Assembly (NCBI GenBank): GCA_030699515.1
Contig: JAUYME010000066.1
Span: forward strand, 1-33,120
Source: a bacterium
GTDB lineage: Bacteria > Patescibacteriota > Minisyncoccia > UBA6257 > 1-14-0-10-44-23
Length of the DNA stretch: 33,120 nucleotides
Direction of reading: 5' to 3'
In this document: in pieces, positions 1 through 33,120 of the stretch
Layout of the letters: the number at the start of each line of letters is the position of its first letter
How positions within the stretch are numbered: the first letter of the stretch is position 1
The notes under the pieces: generated by a model
The model's database searches: none
What the model was told of the DNA's origin: nothing
The model's input: the letters and a program-made list of their open reading frames with translations, nothing else
Program-made: the position numbers and the translations under genes

Positions 1-284
1 GGGTTAGGTACAGGCAGCCGCTGCAGAAGGCGCACCTTCTGCAAGTCAAAGGTCCCACCGCCGCCAAGGCTATGGCGGGCAGGCAAATGTCCCACCGCCG
101 CCAAGGCTATGGCGGGCAGGCAAAGGTCCCACCGCCGCCAAGGCTATGGCGGGCAGGCAAGGGTCAGTGGAAGATTGTGTTTGAAAAACCGCAAGAGTTT
201 ATTGCAAGCGGACAAAGTGCGGTTATTTACGACTTGAAAGGAGAGAGGCTGCTTGGTGGTGGTGTTATTTATAAAGCTCTTTGA
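1..284 (+). CDS. mnmA: tRNA 2-thiouridylase MnmA, C-terminal part (5' end outside window), carrying a 37-codon repeat-derived insert
   Basis: Frame 3 is open from the window edge. VRYRQPLQKA...KIVFEKPQEFIASGQSAVIYDLKGERLLGGGVIY resembles the MnmA C-terminal barrel (RYRQ, GQSAVFY, GGG). Stop TGA at 282-284. Confidence 0.75.
   Translation, partial: VRYRQPLQKAHLLQVKGPTAAKAMAGRQMSHRRQGYGGQAKVPPPPRLWRAGKGQWKIVFEKPQEFIASGQSAVIYDLKGERLLGGGVIYKAL
47..157. repeat. Perfect-phase tandem repeat, 3 x 37 nt (unit caaaggtcccaccgccgccaaggctatggcgggcagg), plus an 8-nt partial 4th copy
   Basis: Copies at 47-83, 84-120 and 121-157 differ at one position. The 111-nt total equals 37 codons and lies inside the mnmA reading frame. 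Visibly GC-rich. Confidence 0.95.
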
Positions 285-332
285 TGGCTGCAAAATTGGA
301 GAAGCCCGCATCTATGGTGGGATGCGGGCCTC

Positions 333-431
333 GCGCTAGGTAGGGTTGGCAGGAATGTCCGGGAGAAAACGGGAAATGTGTGGAATGAGAAGGAAATTTT
401 ACGCTATAGAGCAACTGCCAACCCCGCGCGC
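333..431. other. GC-rich long-range inverted repeat (gggttggcag 343-352 / ctgccaaccc 415-424), preceded by hairpin 304-329
   Basis: Direct complementarity read from the sequence. Lies in the mnmA-comEC spacer, just before a TGcTATAAT promoter (446-454). Confidence 0.4.
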
Positions 432-473
432 AGATAATATACCAATGCTATAATTGTGTCAAGGTTTTTTGTT

Positions 474-1877
474 ATGGCTCTACATAATAAATTTTTCTGG
501 GGGCTTCTTTTCTTTTTGATAGGCGTTCTTTTCTCCAGCTTAATTGTGGATTGGGAAGGCGCCTTATTAATATCTGTCCTTTTTGCTCTACTTTTGGCGC
601 TTTTATTTTTTGTTTTGGGAAAAAGAACTTTTGCGGTATTGGTTTTATTTTCAATACTGGGTTCAAGTTATTTTATTTGGGATGATTTGCGCTACCGCGC
701 AAAAGATAAGTTGAGTGATGAGTTTTCCGGAGAGGCAAAAGTTGTGCATATAAGAGCGCGTGAGAGCTACTTGGAGGCAGACTTTGCTACAGCGCAGGGC
801 AAGATAAGGGCTTATGTAGATAGATCGGAGGGCATTGGCTTTGGCGACACGGTGCTAATTGAGGCAGAGCTTAAAGAGCTTTCAGAAGAGAGCAAAAGAT
901 ATTTTGAAAAGGAAGGCGTGCATGCTCTGGCCTCTTATCCGGAGATTGAGGTTTTAGAAAAGAGGTCTGGGCTAAGAAGAAACTTGTATGCTTTTCGCGA
1001 CAAGGTGGCGAATGTATTTCCAAAATATTTGGATGGAGAAAAAGCTGTGTTTATGACAGGCATTACGTTGGGGCGAAGCACCGGTTTTAGCAACGAGCTT
1101 AATGAGAAACTGAGCGCAACCGGCACTACTCATTTGGTGGCTTTATCGGGTTTTAACGTAATGATTATTGCCAGAGGTATTGCCCTTGTTCTTGGCTTTC
1201 TTTTGCTGTCTAGAAAACTTTCCTTTTTCCTTAGCATTTTAGCGATTTTTCTTTTTGTTGTGATGACTGGCGCAGAGGCTAGCGTTACTCGTGCCGGCAT
1301 TATGGCTGCCTTAATTTTGTGGGCAGACTATAGCGAAGAGATATTTTCTGTGCGTAACCCACTGGTGTTTACTGCCCTAATAATGGTTTTGTTTAACCCA
1401 AAGATTTTGGCTTTTGATTTAGGCTTTCAGCTTTCTTTCTTGGCACTAATTGGCATAGTTTACCTGCGGCCAATTTTGGAGCGCTGGCTAAGGCTTTCCG
1501 GAAGGTCGTTTTTGGCTTGGAAGGAGAATTTAAGTATGACTTTATCTGCACAGCTGATGGTTTTGCCGCTTATTCTTTTTAGCTTTGGCTTTATGCCGGC
1601 ATTTTCAGTTTTAACTAACGTTTTGATCCTAACTTTTATTCCCTTTACTATGCTTTTTGGTCTTTTGATTGTTCTGACTAATTTAATTTCTTCACTGCTT
1701 GCGTCGTTTTTTGCCTTTTTTGCCAATATTTTACTTAGCTACGAGCTGGCAGTGATAGATTTTTTTAGCAATTTTCCTTTTGGAATAAGAATTGAGGCAC
1801 TTTCGCTTTGGATTTTGCTAGCTGTTTATGCTTTCTTTTTCCTATTAATTTATAATAAAACCAATGCACCAGCTTAA
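474..1877 (+). CDS. comEC: ComEC/Rec2 DNA-uptake channel, N-terminal (OB-like plus polytopic membrane) part
   Basis: Multi-TM protein with THLVALSGFNV and AGIMA motifs typical of the ComEC competence domain. ATG 474 was chosen because the extended -10 box at 446-454 precedes it; the ORF track starts at 456. Confidence 0.75.
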   Translation: MALHNKFFWGLLFFLIGVLFSSLIVDWEGALLISVLFALLLALLFFVLGKRTFAVLVLFSILGSSYFIWDDLRYRAKDKLSDEFSGEAKVVHIRARESYLEADFATAQGKIRAYVDRSEGIGFGDTVLIEAELKELSEESKRYFEKEGVHALASYPEIEVLEKRSGLRRNLYAFRDKVANVFPKYLDGEKAVFMTGITLGRSTGFSNELNEKLSATGTTHLVALSGFNVMIIARGIALVLGFLLLSRKLSFFLSILAIFLFVVMTGAEASVTRAGIMAALILWADYSEEIFSVRNPLVFTALIMVLFNPKILAFDLGFQLSFLALIGIVYLRPILERWLRLSGRSFLAWKENLSMTLSAQLMVLPLILFSFGFMPAFSVLTNVLILTFIPFTMLFGLLIVLTNLISSLLASFFAFFANILLSYELAVIDFFSNFPFGIRIEALSLWILLAVYAFFFLLIYNKTNAPA

Positions 1878-6828: not shown

Positions 6829-8631
6829 ATGGCACTGAATAATATAAGAAATTTTTCAATCCTCGCCCACATTGACCATGGCAAGTCCACCTTAGCTGAC
6901 CGAATGTTGGAGGTGACTAAAACTGTAGAGGCTCGCAAGATGAAGGAGCAGATTTTGGATTCAATGGATTTGGAACGCGAGCGCGGAATTACAATAAAAA
7001 TGGCACCGGTACGGATGGAATACAACTATCAACGCGAATATATCCTCAACTTGATTGATACTCCCGGTCACAGTGATTTTAGTTACGAGGTAAGCCGGGC
7101 AATGCAGGCTGTAGAGGGCGCCATTCTTTTAGTGGATGCAACACAGGGGATTCAGGCACAAACTTTGGCCAACTTTGAAAATGCGAAGAAGGTGGGGCTG
7201 AAAATGATTGGGGTGGTTAACAAGGTAGATGTTGCGGCAGAAGCCCAGGTAGACAGCGCAATTTTAGATTTAGCAGAGCTTTTGGGAGTAGATACAGACG
7301 AAATAATTAAAGCCAGCGGAAAGACTGGTGAAGGGGTGAATGAAATTTTAAATAGGATTGTAGAGGTGGTACCTGCGCCAACTGAAAAAGAATACAAAAC
7401 AAAGGCAGCGCGAGCATTAATTTTTGATAGTGAATACGATGAGCATAGAGGGGTAATTGCTTTTGTGCGGGTATTTTCCGGCAGGTTTGATATTAATGGA
7501 AATTACAGCTTTGTTGCCACAGGGGCAAAATTTAAGGCAAAGGATATCGGATACCTGAAGCCAAAATTTACAACAAACGATGTAATTGAAAATGGGGAGA
7601 TTGGTTATATAGCGACCGGGATTAAGGATCCGGATGCTTTAAAAATTGGAGATACGGTTTCCAATTCAAGCAGTGGGGAGGGTTTGGCGCTTCCGGGCTA
7701 TCAAGATGTTATGCCGGTAGTGTTTGTGAGCTTTTATCCGGAAGATGCAAGTGATTATAACGATTTTGTGAAGGCGCTTTCTAAGCTTCGGCTTTCTGAC
7801 AGTGCGCTGGTTTTTGAGCCGGACAAAAGTGAAGTGTTGGGCAGGGGATTTAAGGGCGGATTTTTAGGCCGGCTTCACTTTGAGATTGTGAGCGAGCGAA
7901 TTGAGCGAGAATTTGACATTGAAACAATTTCATCTTTTCCATCTGTGGCTTATCGAGTAAAGCTTCGTAATACTGATGATTGGATGATTGTAAATAATCC
8001 TAAAGATTTTCCGGATGATTATAGCGAAGTAGAGGAGCCAATGGCTCAAATTGAAATTTTGACTAAGAGTGAATATTTGGGAGCAATTATGGGGCTCTCT
8101 GACTTGTATAGGATAAGTGCAATGCATACGGAAAATGTCGGTTCGGAACGGATTAGGGTTTCTGCAAAATTGCCGCTGGCTGATTTAATTTCTGATTTTG
8201 ACGATAGGTTAAAGAGTGTGAGTGCCGGATTTGCGTCTTTGAGCTATGAATTATCCGGCTATTCCCCGGGTGAACTTGGCAAAATGGAAATTCTTGTTGC
8301 AGAGGCGGTTGTACCCGGACTCACCAGAATTTTGCCTAAGGAAGATATTGAAAGAGAGGGAAGACGGACTGTAGAGAAACTGAAAGATCTTTTACCAAAA
8401 CTTCAATTTAAGCAGGCCATTCAAGCTAGATGCAAAGGAAGAATAATTGCGCGAGAAACTTTGCCTGCGCTAAAGAAAGATGTTACCGGCTACTTGTATG
8501 GCGGAGATATTACCCGTAAGCAAAAGCTTTGGAAGAAGCAAGCGAAAGGAAAGAAGAAGCTTTTGGAGCGCGGAGCCGGAAGCCAAGTGCATGTTCCTGC
8601 TAATGTGTTTAAGGAACTACTGAAGAAATAG
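6829..8631 (+). CDS. lepA: Elongation factor 4 (LepA)
   Basis: IRNFSILAHIDHGKSTL, DTPGH and NKVD GTPase motifs. LepA-specific C-terminal region. Confidence 0.95.
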   Translation: MALNNIRNFSILAHIDHGKSTLADRMLEVTKTVEARKMKEQILDSMDLERERGITIKMAPVRMEYNYQREYILNLIDTPGHSDFSYEVSRAMQAVEGAILLVDATQGIQAQTLANFENAKKVGLKMIGVVNKVDVAAEAQVDSAILDLAELLGVDTDEIIKASGKTGEGVNEILNRIVEVVPAPTEKEYKTKAARALIFDSEYDEHRGVIAFVRVFSGRFDINGNYSFVATGAKFKAKDIGYLKPKFTTNDVIENGEIGYIATGIKDPDALKIGDTVSNSSSGEGLALPGYQDVMPVVFVSFYPEDASDYNDFVKALSKLRLSDSALVFEPDKSEVLGRGFKGGFLGRLHFEIVSERIEREFDIETISSFPSVAYRVKLRNTDDWMIVNNPKDFPDDYSEVEEPMAQIEILTKSEYLGAIMGLSDLYRISAMHTENVGSERIRVSAKLPLADLISDFDDRLKSVSAGFASLSYELSGYSPGELGKMEILVAEAVVPGLTRILPKEDIEREGRRTVEKLKDLLPKLQFKQAIQARCKGRIIARETLPALKKDVTGYLYGGDITRKQKLWKKQAKGKKKLLERGAGSQVHVPANVFKELLKK

Positions 8632-8702
8632 GTTATAGGTAATAGTTTATAGGTTATAGAGAAAACAAGAAAGGATAGGGAATAGTAAGAAAAATAAAGC
8701 CA

Positions 8703-27465: not shown

Positions 27466-27600
27466 AAGGATGTAGGATGTAGGAGTTAGAATTTAGGGTT
27501 GGAGGCGAAGCAAAGCTTCGCAGATCTATAACCTACAACCTATAACCTACTTGTGCTGAGCACAGTCGAAGCATAACCTATCCCTATAACCTATAACCTA
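27466..27600. repeat. Word-stutter imperfect hairpin (AGGATGT/AGGAGTT arms versus ATAACCT/ACAACCT arms around GCGAAGC-AAA-GCUUCGC)
   Basis: The left part, 27466-27523, is homologous to 31611-31667. The arms are mutually complementary if G-U pairs are allowed. Confidence 0.7.
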
Positions 27601-31610: not shown

Positions 31611-31667
31611 AAGGATGTAGGATGTAGGAGTTAGGATGTAGGGCTGGAAGCGAACTAAAGTTCGCAT
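31611..31667. repeat. Second copy of the AGGATGT-word element with covarying central hairpin (GCGAAC-UAAA-GUUCGC)
   Basis: aaggatgtaggatgtaggagttag... is shared with 27466-27523. Confidence 0.7.
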
Positions 31668-33070: not shown

Positions 33071-33120
33071 AATTGCAAATTGCAAATTTCAAATTTCAAA
33101 TTTTTAATTTCAAATTTTAA

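Follow-up and report, generated by a model that had tools for sequence, protein, structure and literature searches.

A 30-nt hairpin module nested in a heptamer array of mnmA: a probable selfish composite insert in a permissive loop of MnmA

The window analysed here is a stretch of 33,120 nt, contig C43 of the 75-contig, 668-kb bin G000 of an ultra-small bacterium, and it opens within the 3' end of mnmA (Table 1). The frame that starts at base 3 stays open until a stop at 282-284 and reads ...LQVKGPTAAKAMAGRQMSHRRQGYGGQAKVPPPPRLWRAGKGQWKIVF..., and the fragment matches PF20258. The contig begins 46 nt ahead of the repeat described below; the three-core mnmA is known from its 3' end, and the intactness of its 5' part is assumed. 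Tandem Repeats Finder reported a 37-nt tandem repeat at 47-165 (3.2 copies, 96% matches, score 224). An earlier note on this DNA had proposed an in-frame repeat of 3 x 37 nt in mnmA, and this search, the open frame and the PF20258 match all bear it out; the further observation that each copy is read in another frame is confirmed by translation, the three units of the insert being translated in three different frames. Each unit resolves into a heptamer and a 30-nt core (37 = 7 + 30), with four heptamers enclosing three gaps and one core lying in each gap, in the order CAAAGGT-core-CAAATGT-core-CAAAGGT-core-CAAGGGT. The three cores are 100% identical to each other, and their G+C content is 73% versus 43% for the genome.

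Table 1. Features of the three-core mnmA allele at the start of the window
Feature	Position	Strand	Evidence
mnmA 3' end, three-core allele, 93 codons + stop	3..284	+	open frame; PF20258; 84-91% identity to the end of the complete MnmA on G000:C24
Heptamer H1, CAAAGGT	47..53	+	sequence; identical unit at the identical place in allele C24
Core 1, 30-nt GC-rich hairpin module CCCACCGCCGCCAAGGCTATGGCGGGCAGG, translated PTAAKAMAGR	54..83	+	present in allele C24 with 2 substitutions; member of a cosmopolitan family
Heptamer H2, CAAATGT, variant unit common to both alleles	84..90	+	C24/C43 alignment
Core 2, sequence of core 1, second frame, not in allele C24	91..120	+	alignment; junction contig X2 58-118, 0 differences
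Heptamer H3, CAAAGGT	121..127	+	C24/C43 alignment
Core 3, sequence of core 1, third frame, not in allele C24	128..157	+	alignment; X1 94-160 and 131-200; X2 95-150
Heptamer H4, CAAGGGT (CAAAGGT in allele C24)	158..164	+	C24/C43 alignment

The same bin holds a second version of the locus, from a co-existing strain. Contig C24 ends with a complete mnmA of 400 residues (C24:6416-7618) and overlaps C43:1-545 at 83-100% identity; its order is CAAAGGT-core-CAAATGT-CAAAGGT-CAAAGGT, with the first core only. The length difference between the two alleles is exactly 2 x 30 nt, and neither is out of frame, because the three extra heptamers amount to 21 nt and each core to 30 nt. Such a comparison does not support two further claims of the earlier note, namely that the repeat unit is one of 37 nt and that only copy numbers divisible by three would be tolerated: the modules are the 7-nt heptamers and the 30-nt core (10 codons), and the alleles differ by two cores (60 nt) on a common heptamer scaffold. 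In the C24/C43 alignment, the boundaries of the core insertions can be moved by at most 1 nt, so there was no duplication of the target. G7A and C23T are the 2 substitutions, among 30 positions, that set the C24 core apart from the C43 cores. In one stem register the two sites are partners and their pairing is kept, while C23T mends an A4-C23 mismatch in the stem register of the wider family. Since the C43 cores are identical and the C24 core has diverged at 2/30 positions, cores 2 and 3 are either younger than the allele split or homogenised. In the codons flanking the insert, a hand count gave 12 synonymous versus 3-4 non-synonymous differences between C24 and C43, a pattern indicating that purifying selection acts on both alleles. 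A search of JGI metagenome contigs for further mnmA alleles of the species gave relatives at no more than 58% identity. Beyond the gene, identity resumes between window 398-545 and G000:C24:7700-7852, a stretch that covers the end of the mnmA-comEC spacer and the first part of comEC, where C24 ends; this renewed identity points to a strain bubble in the bin round the 3' end of mnmA.

Head-to-tail tandem units with identical cores are what replication slippage yields, heptamer arrays are slippage-prone (there are 183 period-7 tandem arrays in the 668-kb genome G000), and direct tandems of the 30-mer are known at other loci (L066, L072 and L144). Slippage would have duplicated the 37-nt unit of heptamer and core twice in tandem, the one-core allele having formed separately by heptamer slippage. 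However, both alleles carry four heptamers with CAAATGT at the same ordinal position, and the net difference between them is a whole number of cores. The 37-nt and 7-nt steps that slippage needs between the alleles would pass through out-of-frame intermediates (+37, +74), CAAATGT is predicted as the third heptamer where CAAAGGT is observed, and more substitutions are required. We consider slippage unlikely. Two precise 30-nt insertions need neither frameshifted intermediates nor a wrong heptamer order nor extra substitutions, and insertion is favoured over slippage on these grounds; parsimony suggests that cores were gained rather than lost. We also tried and rejected a microhomology-mediated deletion running from the heptamer AGG to the AGG at the core end, as the product would lack 31 nt and retain a 6-mer, contrary to observation.

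The core belongs to a dispersed family with the consensus CCCGCCTTCGCYAARGCTACGGCGGGCARG. The census search pattern CCNCCNNCGCYAARGCTAYGGYGGGCARG has more than 120 exact matches in GTDB species genomes, with at least 15 phylum-level names in the record titles. The matches listed include many CPR groups, Acidobacteriota, Verrucomicrobiota, Planctomycetota, Bacteroidota, Proteobacteria, Chloroflexota, Actinomycetota and Cyanobacteriota, and among them are two isolates, Geomonas paludis and Chryseolinea serpens. The same pattern is present in 24 IMG/VR viral contigs. Within the order, it was found with up to one mismatch in 75 of 301 genomes, the reversed control pattern being found in none; genomes in this census usually hold 1-5 copies (maximum 15; 5 in this bin), and the element is absent from the same-genus genome. 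The consensus 30-mer had no match in INPHARED phages or PLSDB plasmids, no Rfam family matched within window 1-500, and a literature search by sequence string returned no paper with the 30-mer core strings. The 10-mer GGCGGGCA(A/G)G has 25 occurrences inside the bin versus 0.65 in shuffles, and a relative of the core, identical at 24/30 positions, lies on contig C30. In the copy-rich genome G239, most copies stand in frame in A-rich, Lys/Glu-coding protein tails.

Among the matches listed, the flanks of the core are unrelated, and composition is near-random outside positions 0 and 31. Stem positions 4 and 23 covary in these matches (G-C 83, A-T 18, A-C 17, G-T 6; p = 1e-7). The hairpin that had been noticed inside the repeat unit is thereby upheld, and the case for it rests on this covariation because the folding energy is not significantly better than that of shuffles (z = -1.0 and -1.55 for the hairpin, and between -0.3 and -1.55 for the core and the whole block). 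Long open frames contain 38 of the 122 listed copies, and all six frames are used, while other copies also lie between genes. The use of all six frames argues for conservation at the DNA level and not at the peptide level.

Self-nesting, with a 30-mer placed within the loop of another copy (as in ...GCTAAAGCT[inner copy]TCGGCGGGCAAG), was seen at L284, L285 (G256), L288 (G150), L275 and L280 (G239). A shorter, 19-nt relative, CC(C/T)(G/T)CC-(A/T)GA-GGCGGGCA(A/G)G, has the stem and tail of the 30-mer and a loop of 3 nt, and it is represented by twelve copies in G000 (C13:2992, C32:742, C4:161, C40:16693, C46:4888, C50:5633, C50:11227, C59:1875, C62:89, C74:6052, C74:7882 and C3:2444); the two copies on C74 are embedded in tandem arrays with a period of 27 nt. 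Finally, another GC-rich unit of 30 nt, CCCGCCCGCATCACCATGGGGCGAGGCAGG, forms 2.2 direct tandem copies with no spacer at G000:C40:5469-5534, where its minus-strand reading is in frame and gives GGPASPHGDAGGPASPNGGSGG; its final GGCAGG is as in the mnmA core.

The identity of the host gene is clear. The complete C24 allele matches PF03054 (4e-76), PF20259 and PF20258, the domain set found being an N-terminal PP-loop HUP domain, a central PRC-barrel and a C-terminal beta-barrel, and it matches the PDB MnmA entries 9hlv (1e-75) and 2der (1e-71). The earlier note had placed the insert at a tight beta-hairpin of MnmA, and the tip of a hairpin in the C-terminal barrel is indeed where it lies. In the alignment to 9hlv, it falls between VKGEKT and EVIF, and in an AlphaFold2 model of the C24 one-core allele (53 aligned sequences, mean pLDDT 89.6, pTM 0.88), residues 343-361 form a low-confidence coil (block-mean pLDDT 49-60) between the strands 335-342 and 362-372. 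The loop gains 37 extra residues in the three-core allele and 17 in the one-core allele. Among 28 relatives compared, the hairpin tip may be as short as a tight turn or carry unrelated sequence of up to about 17 residues; the same-genus relative has the tight turn and no insert, and tip inserts in other lineages include heptamer arrays (L010, L184) and a GC palindrome (L005). The tip is a permissive hot spot.

The rest of the gene and its relatives offer some parallels. Upstream of the part seen in the window, the C24 mnmA contains two more in-frame heptamer arrays, AGTAGCA x4.3 at G000:C24:6805-6834 and AGGCAAT x4.4 at 7326-7356. The same-genus relative has no insert at either site, and the AlphaFold2 model has low confidence at both arrays (below 50 for segment 133-138; a mean of 63 for block 311-320). 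At the same hairpin tip in the mnmA of G012 (L029), there is a different insert of about 57 nt between exact 12-nt direct repeats, TATAAGCTAAAA, reminiscent, judged from sequence, of a target-site duplication left by a different small element.

The insert is translated and the frame is kept, and tandem repeats of Borgs have been reported to create disordered protein regions under selection (PMC9879509). The MnmA loop might accordingly be imagined as selected for a new protein function, for example as a disordered interaction surface of this sort. Against such an adaptive role, the three copies yield three unrelated peptides, the family as a whole is indifferent to frame and occurs between genes as well, its conservation is seen at the level of the nucleotides and the stem, and the same-genus relative does without the insert. 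We judge selection for a new function to be very improbable.

Evidence on both alleles also comes from Logan contigs (k = 31), assembled independently from two different samples, X1 and X2, of a single groundwater study. The one-core form is seen where 91 is joined to 158 with AAAGGT between, at a depth of 15.1 in X1 and 13.5 in X2. The junctions of the three-core form are crossed by error-free unitigs, core1-CAAATGT-core2 by X2 58-118, core2-CAAAGGT-core3 by X1 94-160 and X2 95-150, and core3-CAAGGGT-downstream by X1 131-200; these unitigs have depths of 2.4-4.5 and 0 differences. As the depth of the junctions is below that of the one-core form, the three-core allele is a minority form beside it. 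The exact number of cores follows from the metagenome-assembled genome together with the k = 31 junctions, since k = 31 contigs alone do not count copies.

An assembly artefact, in which a two-strain bubble at a contig end led to a wrongly expanded or joined repeat, might be suspected from the position of the repeat 46 nt from the contig start and from the two overlapping versions of the locus in the bin; it is scarcely credible in view of these Logan contigs, which hold both alleles in two samples, and of the heptamers, which are mutually distinct, so that any k of at least 55 gives a single unbranched path. Equally far-fetched is a contingency (phase-variation) locus, which the earlier note had offered as one option and in which changes of copy number would turn mnmA on and off: the unit length is no multiple of 3, heptamer slippage by 7 nt is possible in principle and the site is polymorphic in the population, but both alleles are in frame, 60 nt apart, no out-of-frame mnmA form was found in the k = 31 Logan contigs of X1 and X2 (k = 31 setting the detection limit), mnmA encodes a housekeeping tRNA thiolase in a 0.67-Mb genome, its flanks differ mostly synonymously, as under purifying selection, and the 30-nt module stands in frame in many other genes.

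We now turn to the heptamer arrays as hosts of the 30-nt core. A locus-specific heptamer array stands next to 7.6% of the matches listed versus 1.25% of controls, and once the element is removed, heptamer periodicity runs across the junction in 6 of 119 listed matches versus 0 of 3348 controls. Across phyla, only 5-8% of copies lie in heptamer arrays. Thus, heptamer arrays are one favoured landing site among several, and we infer that the landing sites all plausibly represent single-strand-prone sequence types. A derivation of the heptamers from the 3' end of the element was considered and rejected, as rotations of CCCCAAG stand beside ...GGGCAAG at three foreign loci, L090, L093 and L110, but the idea fails for the mnmA locus and for G000. 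The period-7 arrays of G000 fall into 69 unit families, the AACCTAT type being represented 37 times. Their length distribution has a sharp peak at 30-32 nt, or about 4.4 units; the AGGCAAT type, with eight arrays, keeps to 30-31 nt throughout. Of 177 arrays, 50 are within long open frames. Such a fixed length, with units recurring at many loci, suggests that the arrays may be dispersed modules and not only products of local slippage. Period-7 arrays are also seen elsewhere in the window, for example at 8628-8659, 27526-27550, 27573-27600, 31612-31642 and 33071-33117.

Bacterial heptameric simple-sequence repeats prefer about four units, according to a passage of Rehm et al. 2015 (PMC4692102) in which a 2007 study is cited as reference 33. 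The mnmA locus, with exactly four units, shows this preference of the class, and the length peak of the G000 arrays is likewise in line with it. However, the repeats of PMC4692102 are G-rich quadruplex formers described between genes, whereas the G000 units are AT-rich or of AGG type, lie in part in long open frames and host hairpin modules.

A possible mover of the 30-mer was sought among the Y1/RAYT transposases. At G000:C74:9453-10172 (L178:1246-1965, minus strand), the bin encodes a RAYT-like Y1 transposase, 239 aa long and bearing the motifs HYH and YIHCNP. This ORF is flanked on both sides by a different element, the 33-nt perfect palindrome GCCACTGTTGGAAGTC(C/G)GACTTCCAACAGTGGC. PF01797 showed no association with the 30-mer in 300 genomes of the order, 24 of 74 carriers of the element having it versus 58 of 226 non-carriers (p = 0.29). 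With a palindrome of its own beside the RAYT-like gene and no co-occurrence across these genomes, we rejected Y1/RAYT as the mover. The 33-nt palindrome has 9 copies in the bin; one is inside the RAYT ORF, and two stand in frame in a neighbouring 397-aa ORF, where they are translated TVGSPTSN(S/N)GS.

Among known small repeats, the closest parallels to the core are perhaps the elements SDR1-8 of Nostoc punctiforme and other Nostocaceae. These are reportedly very short hairpin-forming modules of 21-27 nt in hundreds of copies, which are said to appear and disappear precisely at orthologous sites without target duplication and, by the same accounts, may nest in heptamer tandem repeats and inside genes. 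Like them, the 30-nt core is present or absent at the orthologous mnmA site with precise boundaries (to within 1 nt) and without target duplication, and it is nested in a gene and, for a minority of copies, in heptamer tandem repeats. Unlike them, it measures 30 nt, usually has a handful of copies per genome rather than hundreds, and is cosmopolitan rather than a feature of Nostocaceae. By the descriptions of the SDRs, the core is set apart in length, copy number and spread, and we do not file it as a member of an SDR family. For very small mobile repeated elements of Nostocaceae, PMC3116915 and PMC5861425 cite Elhai et al. 2008 (Genome Res 18:1484).

The palindromic elements of Rickettsia (RPEs) present a second parallel. 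As summarised in PMC10969869, they are palindromic selfish DNA placed in frame in unrelated housekeeping genes and translated as fold-compatible surface segments; they measure about 100-150 bp, are confined to Rickettsia in that account and have a conserved peptide in one frame. Like these RPEs, the mnmA core is translated selfish palindromic DNA in a housekeeping gene. It is unlike them in being five times smaller, at 30 nt, in being cosmopolitan and in using all six frames among its 38 intragenic copies. REP and REPIN sequences, in turn, are dispersed imperfect palindromes of 20-40 nt that cause no target duplication and are mobilised by RAYT (Y1, IS200-like) transposases; REPs are extragenic, high-copy and flank their RAYT (PMC3116915). 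The core shares with them the dispersed imperfect palindrome without target duplication, and G000 does encode a RAYT-like protein. The difference is that this gene is flanked by another palindrome and that PF01797 is uncorrelated with the 30-mer.

Overall, we think it likely that the 111-nt block is a tolerated selfish composite insert of the very small mobile repeat (SDR-like) kind, lodged in a permissive surface loop of MnmA; the option of a tolerated selfish insert, raised in the earlier note, is the best reading. In this scenario, a CAAAGGT-type heptamer microsatellite of four units occupies the tip of the beta-hairpin of the C-terminal barrel, and each of its three inner heptamer junctions holds an identical 30-nt GC-rich hairpin module. 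Every step (21 nt of heptamers, 30 nt per module) keeps the frame, MnmA merely gains a floppy loop, and what is selected or copied would be the DNA of the module rather than its peptide. The three-core lineage most likely acquired cores 2 and 3 as precise copies of core 1, set into neighbouring heptamer junctions without target duplication. The most plausible route would be an enzyme or a repair process acting on single-stranded, slipped or hairpin DNA.

It is tempting to go one step further and to regard the 30-nt module as an actively mobile element, close in size to the smallest known. Such an element would insert copies of itself, with no target duplication, at nearby sites that are prone to become single-stranded (heptamer junctions, A-rich tracts and the loops of other copies), moved by broadly distributed or horizontally supplied machinery. 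We put this forward tentatively, as a possibility towards which we do not yet lean. If it holds, the one-core and three-core alleles in one aquifer would be a natural before-and-after pair, fixing the chemistry of insertion to the base.

With the composite insert, a puzzling repeat that juggles frames in an essential-type gene is explained by two classes of tiny repeat, one nested in the other. For the protein, it would mean that MnmA can tolerate 17-37 extra residues at one hairpin tip. The annotation of CPR genomes is helped as well, since such inserts inflate and fragment housekeeping proteins. This locus contributes one array occupied three times over, two alleles that co-exist, the census and a RAYT test with a negative outcome. 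Together they provide a clean population-level case of presence and absence for a 30-nt element with near-identical copies in many phyla and in viral contigs, whereas in our literature search very small mobile repeats were described for Nostocaceae only. With a cosmopolitan family and base-exact junctions at hand, the question of what moves such elements becomes more tractable.
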